From positions 2,436 through 66,435 of the IMG/VR virus record IMGVR_UViG_3300046714_000065: a DNA stretch of 64,000 nt; one strand, 5' to 3'. The translations under genes were made by a program, and so were the position numbers. Positions 3,406 to 23,012 of this stretch are shown here, one piece after another. Source of the stretch: a virus. Positions within the stretch are counted from its first letter, which is position 1. Each line of letters opens with the position of its first letter. The notes beneath the pieces are model-generated. The model was not told where the DNA came from, made no database searches, and saw only the letters and a list, made by a program, of their open reading frames with translations.

Positions 3406-5442
3406 CTAGTGCGTCTCTGCCCAATTTCTGCCTACCTTGGCTTTACCATTGGTTATCATCACACCAAACTCTTTAGCTGCTTCAGTAAATGCTTCCTCAG
3501 AGATAGCTTTAGCCCTTGCTATGATCTCAGGATCGTTATCAACTAGAAACTGTGTCTCATCGTGATATATTATGCGAGGCTTATACTTGATACCTTCTGC
3601 CTTAAACTTCTTGATCATATAGTGCATTGCTGATTTAACTGTAATACTCTCGAATCTCTGAAGCAGGTAGTTCAAAGATTTATGTGGTGAGTCTACGTAG
3701 ATCAATGCACCATCAAGACCTATAATCTTACTGAAACCTAGCTTACCCTTAAATCTACGGTAATCATCATTAAGCTTATCATTCAGCTCTGCAAATCCAG
3801 GTATAGCATTAATGAATGCTTCTTTAAGCTCATTACCTCTAGAGCTTCTCTTACCAAATACAATTAATGCTAGCTTATCACCGCCGCCACCAAATAACAA
3901 TGCATAGAAGAAAGGCTTAGCAGTCTTGCGTGCTACAGACTGATCCCACTTAAGCTCACCCATTGCTCTTGCAATAGCAGTTAATTTATCCGCATTAGCC
4001 TGGTGCACATCTCCATGCATAATGATATCAGTAAACTCTGGGTTCTTTAAATAGTAGCACAAGCCTCTAGCTTGATTACCTTCAGAGTCACAACCTATTA
4101 CTACAGTACCTGGATCAGCTAAGAATAGAGACCTTACTTCCTTACCCCAGAGACTTTCTACTGTAGGTATATTAGCAATAGTCTTATGAGTCATACGTCC
4201 AGTGGGTGTACCAAAGCACATAGCACCACCATGAAGCATATTATTCTCATCCAGATCTCTAATCCAACCACGTAAGATATTAGCTCTTGAGTTAGTAGTT
4301 AGGTATCGGTTATACAACTCACCAATAGCACCTAATAGTAATAGAGAGCTTTCACTAATCTTTTCAGATGTCTTCTCAAGCTTCCTTGTTACAGGATTCT
4401 GTTTGAAGTTCCAGTCATCTGCTACCCAACCAATAGTCCTTAACCATACCTTAGCATCTGTAGGTGATGATAATGTACGTGGCTCAAATGTAATTCTAGT
4501 GTAAGGACCATCTACTAGGCAATCGCTATATAGACCAGACTCTTGTGTTACACCAAACCAACTAGCTATATGTGCTGAATATAAGCCACTCTTAATCCAC
4601 TTAGGTGCCTTCATTGGTACTGCATAGAAGGTATCATTAGCAAAGTAAACGCTATGTGGTATAAGATTACCTTCCTCATTCCTATTCTTAGGCTCAGCTT
4701 CAAATGAACCTAGACCAACTGCATCCTTAACAATGATCTTAAAGCCCATTGTAGGTTCAATTATGTCTTCAGTTATCCTAAGCTCTTGTTCCATCTCAGC
4801 TAGCAGCTTCTCACCTGCTACTCTGTCAAACAACCAGCCTTCTAGCTCTGACTCTGCCATAAATCTAGCAGCTGTATGCTCATTTCTAAGGCTTACACTT
4901 ATCAAAGGATTTCTGTTATTCTGCTTAACGAATTCTTTAATTAGTATCTTGTAAACTCTATGATTTAAGTTAACATCCTGAATACAATAAACGATCATAT
5001 CGAATGATAGATGTGTCCAATCATTGAATGCTATCTTATGATCTTCTAAGAACTCACCCCATAGCTCTAAGCTGTGTCCTCTAAAACCAAATCGCCTAAA
5101 GTTAAGCATCTGGCTAAAGAGCAGAGTATCATGAATAGTAGTATCTGGATTAGGCTCCCATCCAAATAACTTCTTCAGCATATTTAAGTCATAATTGATA
5201 ATATTGTGGCCAATGAGCAACTTAGCTTTATACAAGTAATCCTGCCAGCTAATGTCATGTTCTATTAAGGGGCTAAGGATTGCTTTCTCTGTAGGTGTAA
5301 GTGTTTCAAAGAGCGCTGCTTCATCCGCAGGATCAAGGAACACACTAATGACATTGGTATCAATATCTTTAGCTACTAGACACCAACACTTAGTTACCTT
5401 TCTGAGTAGCTCATTAGCCTCTGTATCGAAGAGGATTCTCAT
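3406..5442 (-). CDS. DNA polymerase family A (T7-like) with 3'-5' exonuclease
   Basis: Exonuclease motifs FDTE, GHNIINYD and YCIQDV; polymerase motifs TGRMTH, GCDSEG (A), RKTAKPFFYALLFG (B) and YHDETQ (C). Confidence 0.95.
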   Translation of the reverse strand: MRILFDTEANELLRKVTKCWCLVAKDIDTNVISVFLDPADEAALFETLTPTEKAILSPLIEHDISWQDYLYKAKLLIGHNIINYDLNMLKKLFGWEPNPDTTIHDTLLFSQMLNFRRFGFRGHSLELWGEFLEDHKIAFNDWTHLSFDMIVYCIQDVNLNHRVYKILIKEFVKQNNRNPLISVSLRNEHTAARFMAESELEGWLFDRVAGEKLLAEMEQELRITEDIIEPTMGFKIIVKDAVGLGSFEAEPKNRNEEGNLIPHSVYFANDTFYAVPMKAPKWIKSGLYSAHIASWFGVTQESGLYSDCLVDGPYTRITFEPRTLSSPTDAKVWLRTIGWVADDWNFKQNPVTRKLEKTSEKISESSLLLLGAIGELYNRYLTTNSRANILRGWIRDLDENNMLHGGAMCFGTPTGRMTHKTIANIPTVESLWGKEVRSLFLADPGTVVIGCDSEGNQARGLCYYLKNPEFTDIIMHGDVHQANADKLTAIARAMGELKWDQSVARKTAKPFFYALLFGGGGDKLALIVFGKRSSRGNELKEAFINAIPGFAELNDKLNDDYRRFKGKLGFSKIIGLDGALIYVDSPHKSLNYLLQRFESITVKSAMHYMIKKFKAEGIKYKPRIIYHDETQFLVDNDPEIIARAKAISEEAFTEAAKEFGVMITNGKAKVGRNWAETH

Positions 5443-8072: not shown

Positions 8073-10220
8073 TCATAGGAATGAGAATTCAGAGTTAAGT
8101 ACTTCTACTACATCATAACTACCATACTCGATAGGTATGTCACTTACACCTAACTGATCTAACAACCCAGGTAAAGGATTGTTTTTGTATAACGAATAAA
8201 ATTGTTCTCTAACCACTCTGGATAAGTTGTCCATGTTACCTGGTACACTACCAAATGAATCATGGATTGTTACTACATCACCTGGACAGTTATCTATTAC
8301 TCTCATTAAATGTGCTGCATCTAAACTGTGTACTACATTAGGAGCTGCACCCGACTTCTGCTTACTAGGTATCTGTATCTGATTCTCATCATCAAAGCCT
8401 ACAGCCTTAATGATCTGACCATCAAACGGTACACCTAATGTGAACTTAGAACTGATACTGTAATCTTGAATTACTACAAAGCCATTAGGTGTTGTCCAGG
8501 TTAGCTCTTTACCTAGAGTACCTATACGCTTACCTGCAGTCTCAAATACCTTTAACAGTGCAGTACTCTTAGGCATTGATTCATACATGGTATTGTATAT
8601 CAGGTTACCAAGCTGAATAGCCCAAGTGTTATCCATGAATTCTAAACCTGCAATGTTATGCTTAGGCGCATCTTCCATGATTTGGTTACCAGCACCATAT
8701 CTCGTGACGCCATAAACCATCGTCATAACGTTTCTCTTACAAATCTTTCTACGCTCACCAACTGATTGAAATCTACTCCAGAACAAAGGTGCTGCTCTAG
8801 CTATCACTTCTTTATTCTCTATTACATAAGCTTTAAGAGCATTACGTGCTGGCTCTTTGTTATCAGCATACCTAGCTGCTTTTCTAAGCTCTATTACCAG
8901 ATCAACTACATGTTCTAGACCTATCGCTTCTTGAGCTAACTCTTCAATTCTACGCCACACGAATGCAGCTACATAAGCATATAGATCACCTGGAGTATCT
9001 CTGTCTACTAAGTTAACGTGACTAGCGGATACTTCATCACGAGTTAATGCTGCTAAGTGCTGTGATCCGTTACAGGAACCGTCCACAAAGCAAATCACGT
9101 TACACTGATAGTTCTCAATCTCATTACCTGATTCAGCCCACTTAAGTATATTATCATACTCAATACACTTAGCTATAAACTGCCAAGGCTCATCTGCTAC
9201 TACCCAACCATCATCATCTATAGCGTTATTAGCGTATGCCCTAAACTTATCTGAGAGACTATCTACCCAGACAATGCGATCTTTAAATGATAGCTTATCT
9301 GACTTAACGCCAAAGGTAGTAGCACCTGCAAAGTGTGAAGCTAAACCGTGTTTAATCCAGTTAAAACCATTCTTACCAAGAGGCAATGCATTATCTAGTA
9401 CTAGTAAAGACCTAGCTAGATCATGACTCTGCTCATGTAAGAATCCTGTATAAGGGTATAATCTTGCTCTAAAATCAACAAAGTAATTACTATAAAATTT
9501 GTTCTGACTGAACTCAATTGCTAAGTCAATGATTCTGTTAATCATCAATCGCTTAGAATCAGATGCTTCAGATGACTTAGACTTAAGGTAATTAGTAATA
9601 ACTCTACCATTAGTTATTCTTAATTTGATAGCTAAGCTCAATACACCCTTGTTTATGGTCCAGGCTCTTTTAGCTGCTTTATTAAGTGTTCTAACTAATG
9701 TGTGATTATCCTCTGACTTAAAAGCTTTCTTAGCCTTCTTTAATCCTCTAAAGATACTATCCTTAGTTACCTCACTTGGTACTAGTGTAGGTTTAATAGC
9801 TGTTTGTGCAACTCTAGTTGTATTCCAAAGTTCACGTATAGCCTTTATATCTACATCTACTAGTACTGCCTCATTATCTTCATTAATCTCTACTATCAGT
9901 ATACCTGACATATGGAATACTAGTAGTAAGAATGAGCCTAGTAAAGGCCAATCTCTTACATTGTAAACCTTGCCAGCCATATGACACTTCTTGCCTAGAT
10001 AACCTATTAGTTCAGGTGTAGGCATCTCACTTTCTATGATCCTTGCTAGTATTTCTACTGATCTATTTATTAAAGCTTCTGCTTCATCCTTATTTAAGCC
10101 ACCTAATGACTCTAATTCTGGTAATTTATGTTGCTCATTATCAATTAAAGCTTCAAAGATTTGGTATAGTAGCTCCTTATGCAAATTAACTCCTTCATGA
10201 GAAGAGTGCCCTAATGGCAA
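8073..10220 (-). CDS. single-subunit T7-like DNA-directed RNA polymerase (true start probably TTG at 10184)
   Basis: DFRARLY (DxxGR-like), VDGSCNGSQH (motif A), RKICKRNVMTMVYG (B), PNVVHSLDA and IHDSF (C); C-terminal FSFL. Confidence 0.96.
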   Translation of the reverse strand: MPLGHSSHEGVNLHKELLYQIFEALIDNEQHKLPELESLGGLNKDEAEALINRSVEILARIIESEMPTPELIGYLGKKCHMAGKVYNVRDWPLLGSFLLLVFHMSGILIVEINEDNEAVLVDVDIKAIRELWNTTRVAQTAIKPTLVPSEVTKDSIFRGLKKAKKAFKSEDNHTLVRTLNKAAKRAWTINKGVLSLAIKLRITNGRVITNYLKSKSSEASDSKRLMINRIIDLAIEFSQNKFYSNYFVDFRARLYPYTGFLHEQSHDLARSLLVLDNALPLGKNGFNWIKHGLASHFAGATTFGVKSDKLSFKDRIVWVDSLSDKFRAYANNAIDDDGWVVADEPWQFIAKCIEYDNILKWAESGNEIENYQCNVICFVDGSCNGSQHLAALTRDEVSASHVNLVDRDTPGDLYAYVAAFVWRRIEELAQEAIGLEHVVDLVIELRKAARYADNKEPARNALKAYVIENKEVIARAAPLFWSRFQSVGERRKICKRNVMTMVYGVTRYGAGNQIMEDAPKHNIAGLEFMDNTWAIQLGNLIYNTMYESMPKSTALLKVFETAGKRIGTLGKELTWTTPNGFVVIQDYSISSKFTLGVPFDGQIIKAVGFDDENQIQIPSKQKSGAAPNVVHSLDAAHLMRVIDNCPGDVVTIHDSFGSVPGNMDNLSRVVREQFYSLYKNNPLPGLLDQLGVSDIPIEYGSYDVVEVLNSEFSFL

Positions 10221-12835: not shown

Positions 12836-13267
12836 TTAACGTCCACGGATGTAGGCAACAATCACGCAGTAGGCAACGAGTGCAGCACCAAGCGCCCAGT
12901 AGAACGCCTGTACAGTCATCGCTTGCATGGCACTTTGGCAGATCGCGGCCACGATCCAACCAACGAAACCAGCCACGATGGACAGGGCATTCACACCAGG
13001 AATGGCGGCAGCTACGAAGGCTACAACGCTTCCCCAACCAGCGAACGACGCAACGGCTGCGTAGGTGCTATAACCCATGAGGGCCAAAGCAACGTTGAAG
13101 GTCACAGTCATGATCGCGTAGAAGAACAGCGACCAGCAGATGAACTTCACGACGGGGTTGCTCAGGAGATTCCTGAAGAACTGAACCACCGATTGAAACA
13201 GACCCGAGATGAAACCAACAGTGTTGCTGGTAACGTTTTGGGCGCCAAACACATGAGCGTGAGCCAT
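12836..13267 (-). CDS. multi-pass membrane protein (early)
   Basis: TAGGAGATTTACC-ATG start; 3-4 hydrophobic segments. Confidence 0.7.
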   Translation of the reverse strand: MAHAHVFGAQNVTSNTVGFISGLFQSVVQFFRNLLSNPVVKFICWSLFFYAIMTVTFNVALALMGYSTYAAVASFAGWGSVVAFVAAAIPGVNALSIVAGFVGWIVAAICQSAMQAMTVQAFYWALGAALVAYCVIVAYIRGR

Positions 13268-13301
13268 GGTAAATCTCCTAATGGTAAAACTAACTTGAGG
13301 A

Positions 13302-13333
13302 GGATTCCTCATATAAGATGGACGCTTTTGCGC
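13302..13333 (-). promoter_or_regulatory. putative phage promoter, copy 3 (GCGCA-N7-CCATCTTATATGAGGAATCC)
   Basis: One of three intergenic copies; about 35 nt upstream of an RBS+ATG. Confidence 0.65.
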
Positions 13334-13351
13334 ACATCTTTCTTGCATAAA

Positions 13352-13582
13352 CTACCTCTTACAGTAGTAAATGTACTCACGAGTAATCCGCTCATTGGTG
13401 AGCAGACCATCGAGTTCCATCTCCTCATCCTTTGTGAGGTCAGATTTCTTTTCCAACTCGCTCTTACGTTGGCGCATTGCCTTCGTGAAGATCTCGTTGA
13501 ACAAGAATCTTGATTCACTCACTTGGAGTGCGTATGCTGCCATCAGCATGAGAATGCCGACTACGATCAGGGTTGTAGCCAT
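13352..13582 (-). CDS. small membrane-anchored protein
   Basis: AAAGGA RBS; N-terminal TM segment followed by LEKKSDLTKDEEMEL. Confidence 0.55.
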   Translation of the reverse strand: MATTLIVVGILMLMAAYALQVSESRFLFNEIFTKAMRQRKSELEKKSDLTKDEEMELDGLLTNERITREYIYYCKR

Positions 13583-13717
13583 GATAGTCCTTTCTAAGGC
13601 CAATCAAAGCATCTAGTTTTTTATCTAGATGCCTTATGTACAAGTCCTCTAACCAGAAGAAGACCGCGAAAGCTACAACAACAACTACTGTTGTTATAGC
13701 CCAGAAGCTCGTACCAC

Positions 13718-13957
13718 TCATACGGCGCTGAAGTGCTGGCTACGAAGCCAGTCACCACGAACAATACGAGCCAGTTCAGCAGCTTCCTTCTCAGTAAGCG
13801 CCGACTTCTTTTCCAACACCTGACGACGGGTCAGGGGCTTACGAAAAGCGGTAAAACGTTCGATGGCTTCGATGCTCATGGCAATCAAGAAGCAACCGAT
13901 GAACGCGCTCAGGTTAATGATCGCGACCAACACAAACATAACGATAAAGGCAGACAT
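13718..13957 (-). CDS. small membrane-anchored protein
   Basis: TAGGAG RBS; N-terminal TM segment followed by LEKKSALTEKEAAEL. Confidence 0.6.
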   Translation of the reverse strand: MSAFIVMFVLVAIINLSAFIGCFLIAMSIEAIERFTAFRKPLTRRQVLEKKSALTEKEAAELARIVRGDWLRSQHFSAV

Positions 13958-13987
13958 GGTGCTACTCCTAATTGGGTTAATTGTGAG

Positions 13988-14019
13988 GGATTCCTCATAT
14001 AAGATGGATGAATCTGCGC
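13988..14019 (-). promoter_or_regulatory. putative phage promoter, copy 2 (GCGCA-N7-CCATCTTATATGAGGAATCC)
   Basis: Has the same 20-nt core as the copy at 13302 and the same N7 spacing. Confidence 0.65.
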
Positions 14020-14041
14020 AATCCACCCATCTTACTGAGCC

Positions 14042-14596
14042 TCAAGCTTGCATCAACTCTTGCCTGGTCTCAATCTGAATCAGCTTCAACTCTTCCGGAA
14101 CGTCATTGAATTCCAGCTTGTAGAGTAGATCAGGGAAGGCTGCCTTGAAGACTGACAGGCCATCTTTCATCTTAATGGCACTAATGATGTCAACCCGATG
14201 GATATGCTGGCTATAAGTTCGATCCTTATAACGCAGATACAGACCTATTGACGGGTTGATAGAGCTTACCATCATGTCATTAGCGTATGCCTGACATTTC
14301 TGATAACGAGTCTTGAAGTCTTCAATATCAAACTTCCCTTGCTCTAGAAGTTCTAAGCTATGTTTAACTGCCCATCGAGCATCAGTGTCAAACGTGGTTC
14401 GACTCAGCTTAAACTCAAGACCCTTGATATCGAGCTCTTCAAACAGCTCACCAATCAATGCTCCAAGCCTTGCAGCATAGAACCTGAAGGCCAAGACCTT
14501 CATGAAGTTCTGCCATGCAGTAAGCTTCACGGGTTCACCTTGGATCTGCCACACTTTCGTGTCATTGTACAGTTCAGGTATATCGGCTAGTTTCAT
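14042..14596 (-). CDS. hypothetical protein
   Basis: 184-aa ORF with an ATGA overlap. Confidence 0.65.
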   Translation of the reverse strand: MKLADIPELYNDTKVWQIQGEPVKLTAWQNFMKVLAFRFYAARLGALIGELFEELDIKGLEFKLSRTTFDTDARWAVKHSLELLEQGKFDIEDFKTRYQKCQAYANDMMVSSINPSIGLYLRYKDRTYSQHIHRVDIISAIKMKDGLSVFKAAFPDLLYKLEFNDVPEELKLIQIETRQELMQA

Positions 14597-14871
14597 TTTG
14601 CACTCCAGATAATTTCAGGATTGATTACGTAATCAGACGCTTGATAACGCTTAGCCATCACGTCTCGTCTATAGGCTAATGCGTAGGCTTCAACACCCCA
14701 CATATTTTGGTACTTGATGATCTGCATGACCCTTTCATCGTCAGAGTAGTAGCCATCATTGGCCATGATTTCTTCCGCTAGTTCTTTGCTAACTGTTGAC
14801 ATGTGATCCTCGGCTATAAGATATTGGTAAGAAATTGAAAGAAAGTATACTACAGATTCTTCAATCGCCAT
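14593..14871 (-). CDS. hypothetical protein (likely start at the internal MSTVSKE)
   Basis: ORF with a GAGGA RBS before the internal Met. Confidence 0.55.
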   Translation of the reverse strand: MAIEESVVYFLSISYQYLIAEDHMSTVSKELAEEIMANDGYYSDDERVMQIIKYQNMWGVEAYALAYRRDVMAKRYQASDYVINPEIIWSAK

Positions 14872-14881
14872 GTTTCCCCTG

Positions 14882-15190
14882 TTATTTTAGTATACGTTCG
14901 ACCAGCACTTCTGCTATGTTTTCTCTGCGTTCTTCCAGTATTCTTATGATGCTTACTGTACGCATGACTAGCGAGTGTGGCAAGTCCATCGTCTTGAGAA
15001 TTAGCGCTAGGGTATTCATAGTATCACCCAGCCTTCTTATTTCTTTTGCAATAGCTCTAGCGTGATCCAGGTTACCTGCATCCATCACACTAGTATCTAC
15101 TGCATCTTGCATGAGGCTACTTAAAGCACCATTCTTTTCGTTTACCAGTCTACCAACCAGATCATTAAAGATCTTCTCTGATTCGGACAT
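14882..15190 (-). CDS. hypothetical protein
   Basis: ORF with an AGGA RBS. Confidence 0.55.
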   Translation of the reverse strand: MSESEKIFNDLVGRLVNEKNGALSSLMQDAVDTSVMDAGNLDHARAIAKEIRRLGDTMNTLALILKTMDLPHSLVMRTVSIIRILEERRENIAEVLVERILK

Positions 15191-15198
15191 AATGTTTC

Positions 15199-15423
15199 CT
15201 ATACATTAAGGATGTTTACTACAAAGTCCCAGTCATCAAACATATTGACCCACCTGGACTTATCCGATTGATTGTTGTCTGGTCTGACAAGTAACCATGG
15301 ACCTACTCTGTCAGAGAATGATACATAGTCCCTTTTATCAGTAACAATCCAATGATTCGGACTGCCAGCTTCTCTTAACTTGTTTCTCCCCTTAACTGTC
15401 TTACCTTCTAATTTCACAAACAT
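15199..15423 (-). CDS. hypothetical protein
   Basis: AGGAGG RBS. Confidence 0.6.
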   Translation of the reverse strand: MFVKLEGKTVKGRNKLREAGSPNHWIVTDKRDYVSFSDRVGPWLLVRPDNNQSDKSRWVNMFDDWDFVVNILNV

Positions 15424-15495
15424 ACTTCCTCCTATTAAAGCTAAATCACAATCATGAGGGCACTTATGATGCCCTGCATGGCTGTAATCTAAAGA

Positions 15496-15798
15496 CTACT
15501 CTTGACCAACGACCTTCCAGCCGCGTTCTGAAATGATTTGAACCTTTGTGCGGTTCTCATTCATCTTCAGCCTTGCCACACTCTCACCAGTTATTGTACA
15601 ACTGATGGAGGCACTGGTGTAACCGTCATACATCAAGTGTTGCATCGCGGCCATCGTAGCAGACTCTAATGTCTTACAGTAACCTGGACGCTGACCACTA
15701 GCGTACTCAGTCTTGAAGAACCGGTATCCACTGCTTGCGTAAGGTATCTGAGCCTTACTGGTTGGGACTATCGATAATTTGAATGCTGCTCTTGCCAT
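15496..15798 (-). CDS. hypothetical protein
   Basis: AGGAG RBS. Confidence 0.6.
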   Translation of the reverse strand: MARAAFKLSIVPTSKAQIPYASSGYRFFKTEYASGQRPGYCKTLESATMAAMQHLMYDGYTSASISCTITGESVARLKMNENRTKVQIISERGWKVVGQE

Positions 15799-16668: not shown

Positions 16669-17057
16669 GTGTCTTCTTCCTCGTAAGATGGGTATCTGTT
16701 GTTGAAAGCATGAGCCGATGGAATGGCCTTGTACTTGTCAACACCTTCAGAGATCTCTTTCTTGAACTGTTGTGCACTCCTAAAAGTTGTAAACGTCTGG
16801 CAGCGACCACCATGGCCTCTGACATCTTGAACGTAGTCCTTACCGACTTTCAACCAAGTAAAGAGACTACCTCTACCCTTCGGACCTTGAAGCGTCATGT
16901 GGGTAATCTGTACATATACCTTGTCAAGTATATCTACAAACACCATACAACGCCACACTGAGTTTCCAGCTCGAAGCCTATCAGCTCCTTTGCAAGTTAA
17001 ATGCACTTCTACTCCTAAGCTAATGGTGAGTTGATAACCAGATTGCAACCAGGGCAA
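16665..17057 (-). CDS. hypothetical protein (start uncertain)
   Basis: ORF lying between the two tRNA genes. Confidence 0.45.
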   Translation of the reverse strand: MPWLQSGYQLTISLGVEVHLTCKGADRLRAGNSVWRCMVFVDILDKVYVQITHMTLQGPKGRGSLFTWLKVGKDYVQDVRGHGGRCQTFTTFRSAQQFKKEISEGVDKYKAIPSAHAFNNRYPSYEEEDT

Positions 17058-17244
17058 ATAGACATCATGGTAGCCTTGCCCTCAATATGATCTGCCTTAT
17101 GATCATAACTAACTCGTATATGAGGATTGTCTGAGACAGCAGCGAACTGGTCTTCAGTAATCTCTCTATCGAAGTATACAACTTCACATACTCGACATGT
17201 CTTCAGGTAACGGTAGCGATACATATCTTTACCCTAATCTAAAG

Positions 17245-17328
17245 TGGTGCCCGCGATCGGACTCGAACCGATATGACTTACGTCGAAGGATTTTAAGTCC
17301 TTTGTGTATACCATTTCACCACGCGGGC
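17245..17328 (-). tRNA. tRNA-Leu(TAA)
   Basis: GCCCGCGTGGTGAAATGGTATACACAAAGGACT-TAA-AATCCTT, long variable arm, GGTTCGAGTCC, acceptor stem and CCA. Confidence 0.93.
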
Positions 17329-17337
17329 AATATTCGC

Positions 17338-17637
17338 TTACTTGCTACTAACTCTGACTTTCTTAGGCTTATTACCTCCAGTAACAGTTAATGTTCCAGA
17401 TATGGTAGGCTTAGCATTTTCTTCGACCTCTTCAGGCCTAGGAACATTTTGATCAAAGAACATAACTCTGCTAGGCCGCTTATGAAACTTGTTATGATTC
17501 GTATGCATGAATGCAATCTTACCTGCCTCTGCTATGGCATAAGCTTCAGCCATACCATGACGAACATTTCGCTTGTTATGACGAATCTCTTCACCAATTT
17601 CAAGCAGTCTTAGATTTGCTTTTTCTGCGTATTTCAT
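17338..17637 (-). CDS. hypothetical protein
   Basis: AAGGAG RBS. Confidence 0.55.
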   Translation of the reverse strand: MKYAEKANLRLLEIGEEIRHNKRNVRHGMAEAYAIAEAGKIAFMHTNHNKFHKRPSRVMFFDQNVPRPEEVEENAKPTISGTLTVTGGNKPKKVRVSSK

Positions 17638-18664
17638 TTAGTTTCTCCTTAGACTGTAGTCTATACTCTTTGCCTTTGGCTATCCTACAAGTGTAGCAGT
17701 AGCTTGCAAGATGATTAGGATTACATTTTAGTTGAAAGTTAGCTCTCGGACTTAGCTCCTTACACTCGTTACACATCTTAAGACCTAGGTAGCCAGGTTG
17801 CTCTTTGGTGCTAGCCCTTGACATAGGATCTAGCAGGCCAATGCCTCTCTTTAGCAGCAGTACTTGACGCCTCATTTCTATATACTCTGGAGGTATGATA
17901 ACATCCTTACCATAAGTATGCTTTATGACGCTCTTCATATAGCCATCAGAGACTGTCTCTCGTGCTTTTGTAGAGCTTCTCTTATAAATAGCTGCAATAC
18001 TGCTACGACCTTCTGGCGTACTTAATCTCTCAGCCCTTGTTAAACTCTTCTTGGCTTTTAGAATTGCATATTTCTCTGGATCAGCCTTTAGTAGCCGTTG
18101 TTTCTCCCGTATAACCTCCCGGTTCTTCTCGCGGTAGGCTTGATGATATCCTGCCTTACACTCAGGACATTGCCTTTGCATAGTTGGGAACACATAGGGA
18201 CCTTCTAATGCGCTCTCTGACCAAAATTGCTTATCGCATTTAAAGCAGATGATTTTACCTGTTTTAGTAATCCTGTTAGGCTTAGATTCAGGCTCAGTTA
18301 CTAGCTTACCTTTCCTTTTTAGTCTGTTTACCCTAACCTGATTATTGTGACAAACCTTACAGTAAGGCATCAGGTAGCTAAGACCTAGCTTATTAGGCCT
18401 ATTGTAGAATTCGCTCCTATCCTTAGTTATAAGACAAGACTTGCAGGTCTTGGTATCTACCATATCCGATAGGCTAAGGCGATACTTTTGTTTTTCTTCA
18501 AGAGGTACCCATCGCCTCTTTGAGTCGCATTCCTTACAGTAAGTCCTTATTGCTTCTGGACCAGCTGCAGGTCTAGGACTAAATAGGGTTCTTGCCTTTA
18601 CCTCTAAGCAACAGGGGCATTGCTTATATAAAGACTTCTCAACTTTGCTAAGCTTTACAGCCAT
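17600..18664 (-). CDS. multi-zinc-finger (four C4 modules) basic protein, HNH/EndoVII-associated type, with no evident nuclease core
   Basis: Repeated K.C..C...K....F......YC..C modules; very Lys/Arg rich; GGAGG RBS. Confidence 0.7.
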   Translation of the reverse strand: MAVKLSKVEKSLYKQCPCCLEVKARTLFSPRPAAGPEAIRTYCKECDSKRRWVPLEEKQKYRLSLSDMVDTKTCKSCLITKDRSEFYNRPNKLGLSYLMPYCKVCHNNQVRVNRLKRKGKLVTEPESKPNRITKTGKIICFKCDKQFWSESALEGPYVFPTMQRQCPECKAGYHQAYREKNREVIREKQRLLKADPEKYAILKAKKSLTRAERLSTPEGRSSIAAIYKRSSTKARETVSDGYMKSVIKHTYGKDVIIPPEYIEMRRQVLLLKRGIGLLDPMSRASTKEQPGYLGLKMCNECKELSPRANFQLKCNPNHLASYCYTCRIAKGKEYRLQSKEKLNEIRRKSKSKTA

Positions 18665-18686
18665 ACATAACCTCCGTGCTTAAGTT

Positions 18687-18710
18687 AACAAAGGGCCGAA
18701 GCCCCTTGTT
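18687..18710 (-). terminator. hairpin/intrinsic terminator after the Tas gene
   Basis: AACAAGGGGC-TTCG-GCCCTTTGTT directly after the stop codon (UUCG tetraloop). Confidence 0.65.
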
Positions 18711-19579
18711 TAAGTGCCAGTGTGGTGAGTCATACCCAACTTGCCAATCGAGTACTCATCGTGAACTTCAAGACCTTCAATGCGTCTCCAGTTCAGGTAG
18801 AGATCAACCAGGAACCGCTTTATCATATAGCGGATAGCCATACGGTGACGGTGGAGCTTGGTCTTCTCCTTGTGAGCTGGATGATTCTCCAGTCTGTTTT
18901 TGTAGTTGTAGTACGAGTCCTTGTAAGGCGACTCCTTCACCTTGAGGAAGCATGTCCCCAAGACGTACAACTTGGTCTTCAAGAATGGGTTGAATGTGAT
19001 GCCAACCGTCTCCTTGATCTCACCCTCCTTGTTGGTGTAGGACTTGGGAACTCGATGTTCCTTGATCCGACTACGGCCCTTGTTGTCTTCAGTAACAACG
19101 TCGTATCCAGCAAGCTTCCACAAGCTAGATGGGTAGTTGGCCTTAGTGATGTCGATCTCACTCAGGATAACTGCCGACATGGCTGGACCACAGCCCTTGA
19201 CTTTCAGCAGGAACTCCGTGTAGATCGGGTATTCCATGAGGATCTGCTCTACACGTTTGAAGTGAGTAGCTTCTTGATCTTCCAAGCTAACGTACTGAGC
19301 CAACAAGCAAAGCTCAGTGTAGGAGGAGATCACCTCATCTCCCTTGAAGGTAGCCTGCTTGGGGAAGACCTTCACCCCATCAGTCAACTTCTTGTAGCGC
19401 CGACGAAGATCAACAAGGACTTCTTGCTCTTCTTCCTCCAGTTCTTCTTCTGGATGGCTAGGCGCTTGACCCAACTTGGTCTTGAAGTTCGCGACAATAC
19501 GGTTTCCCGTTTGAATGCGAAGCTTTTGAAGATCATACGCACCACGAACCATAATGCGTACGTTGCTACTTGGTTCCAT
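18710..19579 (-). CDS. TIGR-associated Nop-domain protein, TasA-like (IS110-related RNA-binding fold, no RuvC/HNH)
   Basis: N-terminal coiled coil (YDLQKLRIQTGNRI), VKGCGPAMSAVILSEID..K...PSSLWKLAG (IS110/Nop helix-hairpin), FNPFLKTKL, and Y...K.RL...H.HRMAIRYMIKRFL.DL; adjacent to a 36-nt dual-repeat array. Confidence 0.85.
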   Translation of the reverse strand: MEPSSNVRIMVRGAYDLQKLRIQTGNRIVANFKTKLGQAPSHPEEELEEEEQEVLVDLRRRYKKLTDGVKVFPKQATFKGDEVISSYTELCLLAQYVSLEDQEATHFKRVEQILMEYPIYTEFLLKVKGCGPAMSAVILSEIDITKANYPSSLWKLAGYDVVTEDNKGRSRIKEHRVPKSYTNKEGEIKETVGITFNPFLKTKLYVLGTCFLKVKESPYKDSYYNYKNRLENHPAHKEKTKLHRHRMAIRYMIKRFLVDLYLNWRRIEGLEVHDEYSIGKLGMTHHTGT

Positions 19580-19626
19580 ACTACTTTACTCCTGGGTTGT
19601 AATGTTGCTACTGCACTTACTTAAGT

Positions 19627-21258
19627 TGATTCACAAAAGTAAATTGGGTTACTGGTCCTGTTTGATGCACTCACGGGAACTGGGTTACTCGTTCGTGTTG
19701 ATTCACTTTATTACATTGGGTTCCTTTTAGAAACTGATTCACTTTCGTATCCTGGGTTACAATTTCCAGATGATCCACTCAATGGGAGAGAGTTACTTTT
19801 CTGTTTTGATTTACTATGGCTTCGAGGGTTACATCCCACTCTAGATCCACTTCTACATATTGGGTTACTAACTACTACCGATTCACTTACCTAGCGAGGG
19901 CTAATAGCTGCAGTGGGCTCACTATATCACCTTGGGTTACATGACAATCTTGATACACCTAGCTCCGATGGGTTACTTCGTGATTCTGATTCACTAAGAC
20001 TATCTGGGTTAAGGGGTCTGCATGATACGCATATTCAACTTGGGTTACTTATCCTTGTTGATACACTCGTTCAATTTGGGTTACTGAATTTTGCTGATAC
20101 GCTAATCTCCTTGGGGGGTTATCTCAGGGCTATGACACACTTTCGTGCATTGGGTTACTACTCAAGTTTGATTCACTTCTTCTCTCTGGGTTGCTATGCC
20201 ATTTTGATTCACAAGCGAGCTTAGGTTTGCTCAACGGTGATGGTTCACTGAAAACACTTGGGTTACTCAACTGGATTGATTCACTCTACAACATTGGGTT
20301 AATTGGTCCCGTCTGATTCACTGTGCATCTTTGTATTACTACATTGCGGTGATACACTTACTTCGCCAGGGTGGCTATGTCTCAATGATCCACTAGATGA
20401 CGATGGGTTACTCCGTGTATATGATACACTTAGTTCTTTTGGGTTACTTGTATAGTAGGATTCACTTCGTCAAGGTGGGTTACTGAACAATCCGGATTCA
20501 CTACGTTCTTTTGGGTTACTGTCCGCTTCGGATTAGCATTGCTCCTTTGGTTTACATAGAAGCGCCGACTCACTATTACCTTTTGGGTTACTTAGTTACT
20601 TTGATACACTTTCGTTTGATGGGTTACTTCCTAGTTTCGATACACTTCAAAGCGCTGGGTTACTTCTACTGATTGGTTCGCTTACTCGTTCAGAGTTGCT
20701 ACTCTTCATTGACACGCTCATTCATCTTGGGTTACTACGTTGCTATGACTCGCTAACCTTCTAAGGGTTACTTGTACAGTAGGACTCACTGTTCTACGCT
20801 GGGTTACTGCGCTCACATGATGCACTTTGTTCCAATGGGTTACTCCTATCAAATGATGCACTAACACTATATGGGTTACTCTGGCACTCTGATTCACTGC
20901 ATCCCTTTGAGTTGCTAGGTTCAATTGATGCACTTCTAGCCATTGGGTTACTGAACAAACCTGATTAGCATGCTGCCATTGGATTACTTACGAAGACAGA
21001 CTCACTGTCATAGCTTGGGTTACTAATCACTCTTGATTCACTGCTTGTTATTGGTTTACTCGAATGCCTTGATTCACTCGCGAGCTTTGGGTTACTCTTT
21101 CTTAAGGATTCACTCGTTATGTCTGGGTTACTTCAGATTAATGATACACTACCTTATCTTGGGTTTATCCGCAAGAGTGATACACTCAACTCCTCTGAGT
21201 TACTTTTTCGGAGTGATGCGCTTAGCTTCATTGGGTTACTAACTACGTATGACTAGTC
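19627..21258 (-). ncRNA. TIGR-type (tandem interspaced guide RNA) array, 45 units of 36 nt
   Basis: The plus-strand unit is TGATWCACT-N9-TGGGTTACT-N9. TGGGTTACT-like copies occur at 19645, 19681, 19717 ... 21196 and 21232. The sense-strand repeats are AGTAACCCA and AGTGWATCA. Confidence 0.92.
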
Positions 21259-21597
21259 TCTAATGAGTATTAGATTCTCAATTAGAGTATTAGACTTATC
21301 CTTATCCAGGGGTCTAATCTTGAAGTTACCATGTGGTACATCGTAGTGGTATACCCACACTAAGAAGTCTACACGATACCTATTCTTGTTGATACGTACT
21401 TCTCTGTAGCCAGCACCATTCATGCTACCAGCAGGCTTGCTAATATCAACAGTGATAGCTGGCTTTATTCTCCAATAAAGATTCCCTTCGTTGTAATGAA
21501 ATAGAAAAATTAAAAGATCTTTTGTTATCATGGACCTCTTAATCTTGCTAGTGGCTAATACCTCCATAAGTCTCCTTTGCGAAAAATAAAGAGGCAT
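21253..21597 (-). CDS. HNH_3-like protein with degenerate active site
   Basis: F.Y.EGNLYW...AGS....GY..V.I....Y....LVW and DKSN.LIENL are present, but the His residues are replaced (YRVDFL, IRPLD). Confidence 0.65.
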   Translation of the reverse strand: MPLYFSQRRLMEVLATSKIKRSMITKDLLIFLFHYNEGNLYWRIKPAITVDISKPAGSMNGAGYREVRINKNRYRVDFLVWVYHYDVPHGNFKIRPLDKDKSNTLIENLILIRD

Positions 21598-21611
21598 TAC
21601 GCCTCTCTATT

Positions 21612-22022
21612 CTACTTCGGCAGCAACTGAAAGCTACCAGTCAGAACTCCACCAGCTGAGAGCATTCCAGTGTGCTCTAGTTCGCCCTTAAACACTCTAT
21701 TTGAATCAGAGTTTCTAGCCGACGCCTTCCTGGTGTAGGTCAGGTGTGTGTAGCTAGAGTCTGTCTCTAACAGGCGCTTATTCACAAGGACCCGGAAGAA
21801 GTCAATCGTATCCGATAGAATTAAGCAGTTAAGCTCAAAACTTGGATTCGAATCAACTAGTGCTTGAAGCCTTGGCAGGTCTTCCTGCGTGAAGTTGTAT
21901 GCAAGTGTCACGTGATGGCAGACCTGCACTGGATGAGACTTTGTATACAGCCCCAAGTACCTCTTCCTGCAATCATCATCTAGCACGAACGCCAGGTAGT
22001 GATTACCTAAGGTAACTATCAT
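21612..22022 (-). CDS. 2H phosphoesterase family protein
   Basis: Two HxT motifs (HHVTLAY, THLTY) followed by SN; start reassigned to MIVTLG, which has a GGGAG RBS. Confidence 0.7.
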   Translation of the reverse strand: MIVTLGNHYLAFVLDDDCRKRYLGLYTKSHPVQVCHHVTLAYNFTQEDLPRLQALVDSNPSFELNCLILSDTIDFFRVLVNKRLLETDSSYTHLTYTRKASARNSDSNRVFKGELEHTGMLSAGGVLTGSFQLLPK

Positions 22023-22023
22023 G

Positions 22024-22305
22024 CTAAGCTCCCTTCTGTAGCAGTGTCTGGAGGCAAGAACATTCTTCACTGTCGCCCTTGTACTCAGTGGCAGTGAAGT
22101 AGGGCGCTTTGTTATCAGCGATCCAATGCCGCGCGAGCTCATATTCAGAGCTGAGGGCATCATAGGACTGCTGACTGATTACCTTGCTGGCGACTTCTCT
22201 ACTGCAGCATTCACACCTCGTAACTAGGTAGTAGCTGGCGAGCGTCCGTTCTTCTGCGTAAGCCATGTTCAGCTCCAATCCAGGTCGTTGGCACAGGTCT
22301 CGCAC
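22024..22305 (-). CDS. hypothetical Cys-containing protein
   Basis: ORF; a GGAG RBS precedes the internal Met. Confidence 0.5.
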   Translation of the reverse strand: MRDLCQRPGLELNMAYAEERTLASYYLVTRCECCSREVASKVISQQSYDALSSEYELARHWIADNKAPYFTATEYKGDSEECSCLQTLLQKGA

Positions 22306-22499
22306 TGACTGTTGTCATTCGAGATAAGCAGGATATTGTAGCCATACATCAGCTCCTTCTCTACCTTAGTCCAGCCCTTCTTGATAGCGGCCTTCACTTG
22401 TTCTTTCGTATCAAGGTCTTCCGATGACACTAAGGCACCACATTCAAAGCAGTAGCAGTTGTAAAGTGTTCGCATTGCGTAAGCCATTGTAAGCTCCAA
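22269..22499 (-). CDS. small zinc-finger-like protein
   Basis: CFECG ... CETC. Confidence 0.55.
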   Translation of the reverse strand: MELTMAYAMRTLYNCYCFECGALVSSEDLDTKEQVKAAIKKGWTKVEKELMYGYNILLISNDNSQCETCANDLDWS

Positions 22500-22549
22500 T
22501 AATTGTGTTGCGAAAAATAAAGGTGTTTAACCTTTACTTCCAAAGCCCA

Positions 22550-22816
22550 TTAGTAGCGGCTCAGACGGCTGATAGCATTCTCAGCATCTTCCTTGCTAAT
22601 GGCCAACTTGAACTTGTGATCCAGTTGAACCATAGCGATTGCACGTTCCACTTCCTTGAAGTAGGTAACGTCAGTGCAGACTTCCTTGAACTCGTCAAAG
22701 GCACGATTCAAGGCTTCCTTGCTGTCAACAAGGTTAAACTCGTGATGCAACTTGATTGCACCAATAACGCGCTCGTTAGCGTTGACGAAGGCGAGCGTGG
22801 GGGTAGCGTAGGTCAT
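22550..22816 (-). CDS. first early protein, hypothetical, with an internal duplication
   Basis: Its TAGGAGATTTACC-ATG leader is identical to that of the 13267 gene; KLHHEFNLVDSKE / QLDHKFKLAISKE repeat. Confidence 0.65.
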   Translation of the reverse strand: MTYATPTLAFVNANERVIGAIKLHHEFNLVDSKEALNRAFDEFKEVCTDVTYFKEVERAIAMVQLDHKFKLAISKEDAENAISRLSRY

Positions 22817-22987
22817 GGTAAATCTCCTAAGGGTTAAGTTGAATTCAGACCATTTAAACACTCATTCAGAATGCTTAAGTGGTCCCACCATATTTCAGAT
22901 GGGTTCCTTTTTCGGGGTGCTACCCAGGTTATACAAAGGAATAACCAGACCAACATAGTACAAACAGTTCTACATAAAGATCTCTCT

Positions 22988-23012
22988 TCATATAAGATGG
23001 GTATATTTGCGC
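22988..23012 (-). promoter_or_regulatory. putative phage promoter, copy 1 (GCGCA-N7-CCATCTTATATGA)
   Basis: Third copy of the motif, at the head of the early region. Confidence 0.6.

Follow-up and report, generated by a model that had tools for sequence, protein, structure and literature searches.

The tasA locus and its product

A 64,000-nucleotide (nt) stretch of viral DNA, positions 2,436 to 66,435 of IMG/VR record IMGVR_UViG_3300046714_000065 and hereafter the window, carries on its minus strand a gene for a 289-amino-acid (aa) protein lying next to an array of 45 repeat and spacer units. The protein, TasA, is very probably the protein component of a ribonucleoprotein (RNP) guided by tandem interspaced guide RNAs (TIGR) and devoid of a DNA nuclease of its own, and the locus as a whole is likely to be a dual-repeat TIGR-TasA system of a near-complete, 66.4-kb tailed soil phage. 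The TasA type was defined in 2025 as the solo-Nop class of TIGR-associated (Tas) proteins and the most common Tas effector (PMC12045711). The features on which the argument rests are listed here in window coordinates.

18710..19579, minus strand: tasA, encoding a 289-aa TIGR-associated protein with a coiled coil and a Nop domain (open reading frame (ORF), NCBIfam, PDB profile, Foldseek and VIA-align)
19238..19573, minus strand: coiled-coil dimerisation region, residues 3-114, with helices 3-35, 49-66 and 87-114 (AlphaFold2 (AF2) secondary structure and predicted dimer)
18713..19228, minus strand: predicted Nop (IS110 Tnp-like) RNA-binding domain, residues 118-289 (alignment to TasR 145-306 and TasH 144-297)
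18986..19078, minus strand: loop and beta-hairpin (GRSRIKEH...ITFNP), residues 168-198, with strands 176-182 and 188-194 in the AF2 model
18725..18754, minus strand: C-terminal tail, with Y276, K280 and H285 invariant in 36 of 36 aligned sequences; predicted dyad Y276/H285 for processing of the guide RNAs (tigRNAs)
19580..19626, minus strand: leader, in the minus-strand reading the 47 nt from the last edge repeat to the tasA start codon, holding an AGGAG ribosome-binding site
19627..21258, minus strand: dual-repeat TIGR array, 45 units of 36 nt (unit table, position-wise counts and TRF period of 36)
19627-19635, minus strand: last full edge repeat, followed by the 47-nt leader and the tasA start
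21250-21258, minus strand: 5'-truncated edge repeat GACUAGUCA, overlapping the TAG stop codon of the ORF at 21253-21597

The tasA reading frame opens with an ATG that has AGGAG 9 nt upstream. A public gene call (P0001) begins instead at M10 and yields 280 aa, but the 289-aa form is the likelier product because the residues preceding M10 are conserved in relatives and M10 itself is not. The protein scores 126.2 bits against NCBIfam model NF052498.1 (TIGR_Tas_endo; cut-off 100), with residues 8-265 aligned to positions 2-215 of the 215-position profile. Of 2020 candidates from a word-index search, 1695 were relatives at E<=1e-3; the 120 that were listed are 266-356 aa long. Alignment of the window TasA with 35 of these 120 (36 sequences, alignment A1) gave 61 invariant columns; the family is about 284 aa long. 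When A1 served as a hidden Markov model query, 4202 cluster representatives passed E<=1e-3, of which 2144 also passed 1e-10 and 821 passed 1e-30. Compared with the PDB, the A1 profile matched TaTasR (9mty, E 7e-20) and SpTasH (21kl and others, E 2e-13); at E<=10 there was nothing besides TaTasR and SpTasH sequences, and no IS621 chain. PADLOC returned no match for TasA or for three neighbouring proteins.

The names attached to such proteins by public annotation, 'RNA-guided endonuclease' in NCBIfam (NF052498) and 'transposase' in PHROG and GenBank, both mislead, because TasA carries neither a nuclease nor a recombinase domain. The second name does raise the question of whether tasA is a decayed IS110-type transposase gene that happens to lie beside unrelated repeats. 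Its best PHROG match is phrog_4285 'transposase' (E 1e-39), the related ORF034 of Ralstonia phage phiRSL1 is annotated 'transposase', and the sole Pfam hit is a weak, sub-threshold one to Transposase_20 (PF02371) that covers residues 123-165 and reaches profile position 46 of 87. However, the NCBIfam IS110 model gives TasA 17.1 bits against a cut-off of 140, the N-terminal RuvC-like DEDD domain of IS110 proteins (PF01548) has no Pfam match in TasA at E<=1, and 36 of 44 related loci have an array alongside tas. Furthermore, a large family of about 284 aa that retains 61 invariant columns in 36 sequences is not the product of decay. A decayed transposase is contradicted by these results and is scarcely credible.

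Fold, dimer and absence of a nuclease domain

The AF2 model of TasA (mean pLDDT 81.5, pTM 0.72) is helical apart from a single beta-hairpin, at residues 176-194. The top 10 rows of a Foldseek search were TasH or TasR chains throughout (E 2e-9 to 2e-7), followed by IS621 at E 8e-4. Structural alignment of model residues 1-289 with VIA-align gave Z scores of 21.4 with TasH 65-304 (root-mean-square deviation 3.4, 220 residues aligned), 19.3 with TasR 111-317 (2.2, 194 aligned) and 13.6 with IS621 125-322 (3.2, 183 aligned), falling to 7.4 with Nop5 (3pla_A, residues 134-373) and 7.3 with Nop56/58. Every one of these matches begins just past the N-terminal HNH, RuvC or fibrillarin-binding domain of the partner, and in the profile alignment TasA residues 14-27 fall on TasR 123-136. 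An earlier note on this DNA, made from the sequence alone, had placed the beginning of the coiled coil at about residue 7 and concluded that no room was left for an N-terminal RuvC domain. The helix of residues 3-35 and a dimer interface that begins at residue 5 put the start at about residues 5-7, and residue 1 of TasA maps to TasH 65, TasR 111 and IS621 125, in agreement with both statements.

The same note had reported no HNH or cysteine motif. SpTasH is just 309 aa long, so protein size alone cannot exclude a small HNH domain in TasA. However, the N-terminal HNH segment of SpTasH has no counterpart in TasA in the multiple alignment; the three cysteines of TasA (residues 91, 130 and 210) are scattered and form no CxxC, and no HNH or RuvC motif is present; A1 has no conserved histidine within residues 1-105; and the DNA 5' of the tasA start is the non-coding array, not a coding extension. 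The absence of a nuclease domain is confirmed because the HNH segment is unmatched, the cysteines are isolated and a conserved N-terminal histidine is lacking. Structure prediction, one of the checks that the note had asked for, is consistent with this, since the AF2 model comprises a coiled coil and a Nop domain in which no RuvC or HNH fold was detected; as modelled, TasA thus has no N-terminal HNH or RuvC domain, the property by which the TasA subtype is recognised. No Pfam Nop match was found in TasA at E<=1, and the alignment with Nop5 covers the coiled coil and Nop domain only, from Nop5 residue 134, short of what a Nop5 or Nop56/58 protein of the small nucleolar RNPs (snoRNPs) would be expected to give.

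A TasA homodimer was predicted with an ipSAE of 0.63, as compared with 0.00 for the best control, through an interface formed by residues 5-34 and 86-113; at least 84% of contacts were common to the runs, with a partner pLDDT of at least 77. In calibration, the ipSAE mark was reached by 20 of 30 proteins known as same-chain pairs and by one of 23 single-chain proteins. Because the dimers of TasR and TasH have already been solved, the pass may mirror likeness to those structures only.

Structure and strand of the array

On the minus strand, each unit of the array reads edge repeat AGUGNAUCA, a 9-nt spacer A, loop repeat AGUAACCCA and a 9-nt spacer B. The repeats are 9 nt long, and two 9-nt spacers are present in 43 of the 45 units, the irregular ones being unit 27 (spacer A of 10 nt) and unit 32 (spacer B of 11 nt); the large, diverse guide repertoire described in the earlier note is thereby borne out. 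Dual-repeat TIGR arrays are defined by two alternating repeats of 8-12 nt, spacers of about 9 nt and a 36-nt unit (PMC12045711), and the window array has all of these properties. Over the 45 units, the edge repeat begins with A (39) and G (45) and ends with C (45) and A (34), and the loop repeat begins with A (39) and G (40) and ends with C (45) and A (37). Both repeats therefore carry AG at the start and CA at the end, as expected of the box D-like and box C-like ends of a dual-repeat TIGR; the corresponding motif of the TaTIGR repeats is UG...CCA (PMC12045711).

With repeats so close to symmetric, both strands are plausible at first sight. In plus-strand orientation the repeats would be UGAUNCACU and UGGGUUACU and start with UG, as in TaTIGR, but this reading was rejected, since the arrays of relatives run in the same direction as tas and have AG...CA repeats. 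For instance, the array of Salicola phage CGphi29 (SpTIGR) lies downstream of tas and on its strand, with repeats AGCGAGCCA/AGACAACCA, and has been shown experimentally to be transcribed with tasH; in Ralstonia phage phiRSL1 the array, likewise downstream and on the tas strand, has repeats AGUGAGCC/AGUCACCC. A 36-nt-periodic segment was found in 20 of 23 IMG/VR loci of relatives (loci are given L numbers below), and in all 20 the loop motif occurs in tas orientation; loci L004-L012 contain 10-34 forward matches to the motif and none in reverse. Among loci from the genome collection, 16 of 21 contain such a segment, again in tas orientation. The array may lie downstream of tas (e.g. L004-L019), upstream (L021-L023, L031, L037, L042 and L046) or on both sides (L020 and L044). 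To judge from these relatives, the window array runs in the direction of tasA and lies on its upstream side. That array and gene share a strand was absent from the earlier note.

Guides with box C/D-like anchors, together with a Nop fold such as that of box C/D snoRNP proteins (Z 7.4 with Nop5 3pla and 7.3 with Nop56/58), raise the possibility that the RNP targets RNA rather than DNA, either by snoRNP-like guidance of RNA modification or by RNA binding. RNA targeting was among the outputs that the earlier note had considered, and it has gained little. TasR is reported to be inactive on single- and double-stranded RNA (PMC12045711), and MbTasA, PlTasA and FpTasA all act on DNA (bioRxiv 10.64898/2026.09.09.750476; 10.64898/2026.08.11.744272). 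Moreover, TasA lacks a fibrillarin-binding N-terminal domain, Nop5 being aligned from residue 134 only, and no methyltransferase PHROG match was found among the 61 phage ORFs scanned. An RNA target is thus highly improbable.

Two observations bear on variation of the array. In a third soil metagenome run, which contains a relative about 90-95% identical to the window, contig joints within the array skip 69-576 bases or swap 102 bases for 30; the contigs are of low depth and give a hint only, but it seems that arrays differ by whole units and change faster than their flanks. Within the window array, two pairs of A spacers differ by a single base (units 9/22 and 14/23), against a null mean of 0.11 pairs, with two pairs reached in one of 300 shuffles; one such pair of B spacers (units 5/29) has a null mean of 0.27 and was reached in 67 of 300 shuffles. 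The near-identical spacers are in distant units, and their partner spacers differ, which is weak evidence hinting at duplication or shuffling of units or half-units.

A putative guide-processing site

The C-terminal tail of TasA contains a candidate active site that the earlier note did not mention. Y276 aligns to Y289 of SpTasH, and the KLGxxH of TasA aligns beside the KLGH of SpTasH, with H285 offset by two residues from SpTasH H296. In SpTasH, Y289 and H296, in a flexible C-terminal tail, are catalytic for cleavage of its own precursor tigRNA (PMC13421893), and a C-terminal Y/H dyad is described as typical of dual-repeat systems (Xu et al., bioRxiv 10.64898/2026.09.09.750476). Because the invariant dyad of TasA aligns to that of SpTasH, self-processing at the edge repeat is predicted, and Y276/H285 is the likely guide-processing site.

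The loop at residues 168-198

The earlier note had singled out the stretch GRSRIKEHRVPKSYTNKEGEIKETVGITFNP, which is TasA residues 168-198, as occupying the place where IS110 recombinases have their catalytic serine loop. The loop is flanked by a helix that ends at residue 157 and one that begins at 198; within it, G168, R169, H175 and Y181 are invariant in A1 and S170 is near-invariant. Counted from the gapped alignment, the region (residues 162-197) is 14 aligned positions longer than in TasR, and the Transposase_20 match stops just before the loop, at residue 165. In IS110 enzymes the catalytic S241 (numbered as in IS621) sits in the Tnp-domain loop that joins alpha3 to alpha4 (PMC11208158). 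Equivalence of the two loops is positionally plausible, the comparison being one of position only. The TasA loop may also be the counterpart of the 'wedge' insertion of the TIGR papers.

The conserved residues of this clade-specific loop allow a further possibility, that it forms a second active or docking site by which TasA nicks DNA, attaches to it covalently or recruits a factor, with the 45 guides serving a multiplex attack on host or rival DNA. If so, TasA would do more than block DNA, and the guides would attack host or rival DNA during infection; this is, in our estimate, very unlikely.

In the wider family the loop is an insertion hot spot, with variable insertions in many relatives. 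In the set P0131-P0277, many close relatives of 300-450 aa align to the profile piecewise, as two or three segments with a break after profile position ~161.

Function of TasA and its targets

Studies of other Tas proteins provide the basis for considering what the window TasA does. FpTasA binds 36-nt tigRNAs, targeting by TIGR systems uses both spacers, which address opposite strands of an 18-bp site, and TasR and TasH need no adjacent motif resembling a protospacer adjacent motif (PMC12045711). MbTasA, which belongs to the stem-loop type, binds target DNA in electrophoretic mobility shift assays and reversibly represses a reporter and chromosomal cysG (bioRxiv 10.64898/2026.09.09.750476); in that preprint the absence of a nuclease domain in MbTasA is cited beside in vitro cleavage assays, and the statement of 'no detectable cleavage' names the two TasR proteins. 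Fusions of FpTasA and PlTasA to VPR activate a targeted promoter in human cells, and PlTasA was solved by cryo-electron microscopy (cryo-EM) as a dimer (Guan et al., bioRxiv 10.64898/2026.08.11.744272).

By analogy with these proteins, the best-supported reading is that the window TasA would be a nuclease-free, RNA-guided DNA binder that acts as a roadblock or repressor. The earlier note's proposal of a programmable binder used for repression or roadblocking is in line with the behaviour of MbTasA, FpTasA and FpTasA-VPR, and is supported, albeit already known for relatives of TasA from work of 2025-2026. As to its natural output, blocking of the transcription or replication of non-self DNA is favoured, with a probability of roughly 0.55.

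A scheme of this kind would begin with minus-strand transcription through the 45-unit array, from 21258 to 19627, and on into tasA. TasA would dimerise through its N-terminal coiled coil, as predicted, and by homology to the TasR and TasH structures each Nop domain would grip one repeat, edge or loop, by its AG..CA ends. Y276/H285 would then cut the precursor within each edge repeat to release 36-nt tigRNAs, as the homologous site does in SpTasH. The resulting RNP, again by homology, would read an 18-bp DNA site in which spacer A pairs with one strand and spacer B, right beside it, with the opposite strand. With no HNH or RuvC domain, the RNP would bind and bend DNA without cutting it and so would constitute a sequence-specific roadblock or repressor; here the absence of the domains comes from the present analysis, and binding and repression come from other TasA proteins only. 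The targets, speculatively, would most likely be DNA of the host or of rival mobile elements.

The guides were also compared with the phage's own genome. On a single strand, the expected target consists of the spacer A sequence and then spacer B in reverse complement, a format derived from the reported 8-nt 3' overhangs (PMC12045711). For the search of the 66,435-bp genome, 43 of the 45 guides were used, the two units with irregular spacers being dropped. Two target geometries were tried alongside two control arrangements, each allowing a gap of 0-2 and no more than three mismatches.

A number of points weigh against the scheme as proposed. In the self-target search, matches with at most two mismatches numbered three in the expected geometry, one of them inside the array, and none in the alternative geometry, as compared with two and two in the controls; with no excess over controls, the guides are not obviously aimed at the phage itself. 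In 25 related loci (214,068 bases), examined in both geometries and both control arrangements, nothing above chance was found. The strand, expression and processing of the window locus are all drawn from relatives. H285 sits two residues off SpTasH H296, in a flexible tail, and TaTasR, although required for maturation, is reported not to catalyse the cut itself (bioRxiv 10.64898/2026.08.11.744272), so that self-processing is not universal. The MbTasA that represses and the PlTasA solved by cryo-EM use stem-loop rather than dual-repeat guides, and the data on dual-repeat TasA consist of an RNA pull-down and a VPR fusion in human cells only, as far as these reports describe (PMC12045711; bioRxiv 10.64898/2026.08.11.744272). 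Finally, invariant H175 and Y181 and near-invariant S170 in the loop leave room for a second activity.

One match in a related locus (L015) had a single mismatch, but its geometry was considered wrong and it was treated as chance; nothing else in those loci fell below two mismatches. By our own estimate, an exact 18-mer match is expected by chance in large public collections, and the same point is made by Xu et al. (bioRxiv 10.64898/2026.09.09.750476).

The self-target search also bears on a role of TasA in DNA architecture, in which guided bending of DNA by 180 degrees would serve recombination, integration, packaging or segregation. Such a role was raised for TasA by Faure et al., on the grounds of a TasR-like bend and an association with ParB (PMC12045711), and the fold that TasA has in common with IS110 recombinases (Z 13.6) would suit it. 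Yet no integrase or ParB PHROG match is present among the 61 ORFs scanned, and no spacer pair matches the phage's own genome above controls, which makes self-directed architecture unlikely. Architecture is on balance quite unlikely as the purpose of the system.

The reading of TasA as a guided roadblock or repressor adds no new mechanism, as the type of system has been known since 2025 and its function was characterised in 2026. The window locus is nevertheless a clean natural example of dual-repeat TIGR-TasA, large at 45 guides and in full phage context, in a near-complete phage that encodes its own RNA polymerase. The natural targets of TasA and the reason for its retention by phages are an open question in the TIGR papers, and material for the question of targets is offered by the phage context, by the strain variant with unit-level differences in its array and by phiRSL1 as a cultured distant relative. 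The 45-guide locus in its phage context, the poor fit of the curated NCBIfam name 'endonuclease' to TasA proteins and, described below, the intein-bearing relatives and the relative bearing an RNA polymerase domain are new or are unmentioned in the main texts of the TIGR papers that were searched, supplements aside, and the last two may be worth more than the main finding.

Neighbouring genes and flanking signals

The two genes that flank tasA and the array, and a hairpin that follows tasA, are as follows.

17600-18664, minus strand: 354-aa zinc-ribbon protein with four CxxC...CxxC modules, 45 nt past the tasA stop; PHROG matches to HNH, endonuclease VII and Lar-like proteins at ~1e-11
21253-21597, minus strand: 114-aa HNH_3-like protein, upstream of the array; phrog_99 'HNH endonuclease' at E 2e-14, sub-threshold Pfam HNH_3
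18687..18710, minus strand: GC-rich hairpin with a UUCG loop, directly past the tasA stop and with no U-run; RNAfold -17.5 kcal/mol for a 60-nt stretch

The earlier note had suggested that a nuclease-less effector might recruit a partner in trans, and had listed neighbouring genes for prediction of complexes. TasA would then be a targeting module, and a separate effector such as a nuclease would come from a flanking gene or from the host. PHROG 'HNH endonuclease' matches for both flanking ORFs (17600-18664, E 5e-12; 21253-21597, E 2e-14), which lie with tasA and the array on one strand and with short gaps, speak for such an arrangement, as do the TasA-ParB operons in which some TasA proteins have partners (PMC12045711). 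On the other hand, Faure et al. describe no clear associations of TasA apart from ParB (PMC12045711), and no conserved partner was seen in the present comparison: the 11 neighbouring ORFs, both candidates included, had no tblastn match at E<=1e-3 in 25 + 21 other loci, 46 in all, and synteny is not conserved beyond one ~93% identical strain. The PHROG matches of the 354-aa protein are confined to its zinc-ribbon modules, residues 11-123, and Pfam found no family match and no nuclease domain in the protein. The 114-aa protein reaches 15.8 bits with Pfam HNH_3, below the cut-off of 24.8. Judged by eye, it has D and P at the positions where the HNH_3 motif normally has histidines, which also counts against a partner nuclease. 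Recruitment of an effector in trans is unlikely, and a partner among the neighbours is less well supported than the roadblock or repressor reading.

Signals for expression of the locus did not stand out. Among the sequencing runs listed as matching 18700-21300, none was of RNA. Scans of 17300-22600 returned 10 promoter-like sites, as compared with 7.9 in shuffled sequence, and four terminator-like sites, as compared with 4.4, that is, no signal in either case; and a search for a promoter of a phage RNA polymerase, as 11-mers repeated at least four times outside the array and the tail-fibre repeats, found none near the array. The hairpin at 18687..18710 was not called by the scan for intrinsic terminators. 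A UUCG hairpin also follows the tas stop codon in CGphi29 (L001, ~3657-3676), phiRSL1 (L002, ~4951-4970) and a few other loci; many other relatives, whose array abuts the stop codon (e.g. L004-L011 and L017-L019), lack it, and it was thus rejected as a general feature of tas genes.

Comparison with known systems

The closest known counterpart is the FpTasA-type dual-repeat system of Flavonifractor plautii, which likewise has a phage-borne solo coiled-coil and Nop protein of ~290 aa with a Y/H dyad and an adjacent two-repeat array with 9-nt spacers and a 36-nt unit (PMC12045711). The window array differs in being upstream of tasA rather than downstream, although an upstream position is also known, and in its 45 units, where TIGR arrays have 'most often 5 to 15' (PMC12045711). 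Its repeats, AGUGNAUCA/AGUAACCCA, differ from the FpTasA type, FpTasA having been compared by description and not by sequence. SpTasH of Salicola phage CGphi29 (PDB 9w03/9w04) and TaTasR (9mty) have the same coiled-coil and Nop core, and the SpTIGR repeats AGCGAGCCA and AGACAACCA follow the same logic as those of the window; unlike these proteins, the window TasA has neither the HNH domain (SpTasH residues 1-64) nor the RuvC domain (TaTasR residues 1-110), and its loop is longer than that of TasR, with a beta-hairpin in the AF2 model. The stem-loop TasA proteins described in 2026 preprints (MbTasA, PlTasA and BlTasA) are nuclease-less too and combine RNA-guided DNA binding with repression of transcription, whereas the window system is of the dual-repeat kind and has the dyad.

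The IS110/IS621 bridge-RNA recombinases have the coiled coil and Tnp/Nop fold in common with the window TasA, but use one bridge RNA where the window has an array of 36-nt guides; the window protein has no RuvC DEDD domain, and nothing points to mobility. Nuclease-free CRISPR interference (type IV, type V-M and dCas9-style CRISPRi) is alike in blocking transcription in a guided manner without cutting, typically of mobile elements, an analogy drawn by Faure et al. (PMC12045711). The TasA fold is unrelated to those systems, and recognition is by tandem spacers on two strands, 2 x 9 nt. TIGR systems are not known to have adaptation genes.

In phiRSL1 (L002, NC_010811.2), ORF034 at 13180-14217 shares 37% identity with the window TasA across 97% of its length, and in the ~1.3 kb that follow (~14300-15600) AGUGAGCC-like repeats alternate with AGUCACCC-like ones; thus a cultured jumbo phage carries a TIGR-Tas locus. 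The main text of Faure 2025 contains neither 'Ralstonia' nor 'phiRSL1'.

Unusual relatives of TasA

Among the proteins found by the searches, relatives of 672-879 aa carry inteins (P0121, P0124, P0126-P0130, P0135 and P0211 are listed), and intein domains (Pfam Intein_splicing, LAGLIDADG_3 and Hint_2) were found in seven of 10 'longer' relatives. In P0121 and P0124 the intein directly follows a conserved SSLWK(Y/L) motif, at a point that corresponds to residues 156/157 of the window TasA (nt ~19109-19114), and in P0124 there is apparently a further insertion, of lesser size, around residue 237. Neither Faure 2025 nor Xu 2026 uses the word 'intein' in its main text, supplements aside.

A few close relatives (P0190 and P0206) have unassigned N-terminal extensions of 80-116 aa with no Pfam match. 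A different relative, P0259 (487 aa), ends in the C-terminal domain of the RNA polymerase alpha subunit (alpha-CTD; PF03118, E 1.5e-14, residues 398-457) and has an unassigned N-terminal extension of ~88 aa before its TasA core; it is a single cluster representative. The fusion fits a role for TasA at promoters or in transcription, and in the TIGR main texts searched (supplements aside) a TasA relative with an alpha-CTD has no mention.

The phage and its occurrence

The phage record is 66,435 bp long, with a GC content of 40% and a completeness of 95% by CheckV. Its minus strand holds 70 of 84 crude ORFs, and PHROG matches among the 61 ORFs scanned include large terminase, portal, major head, DNA polymerase I and T7-like RNA polymerase proteins, a tape measure protein of 2796 aa and two very long collagen-like tail fibre proteins; the phage also has two tRNA genes. 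Megablast of 17000-23000 against 50,697 phage records gave no match. The window DNA is present in one soil metagenome run, possibly its source. A rhizosphere run from a different study matches it at 99% or more in 13 of 15 pieces compared, with pieces of the array (20026-21178) 100% identical; the third soil run, mentioned above, holds the relative whose flanking genes are about 90-95% identical.

The T7-like RNA polymerase, of the single-subunit kind, is encoded at 8073-10220, minus strand (phrog_414, E 7e-116); another ORF, at 53528-55414, minus strand, among the head genes, is RNA-polymerase-like with a weaker match (phrog_414, E 4e-17).

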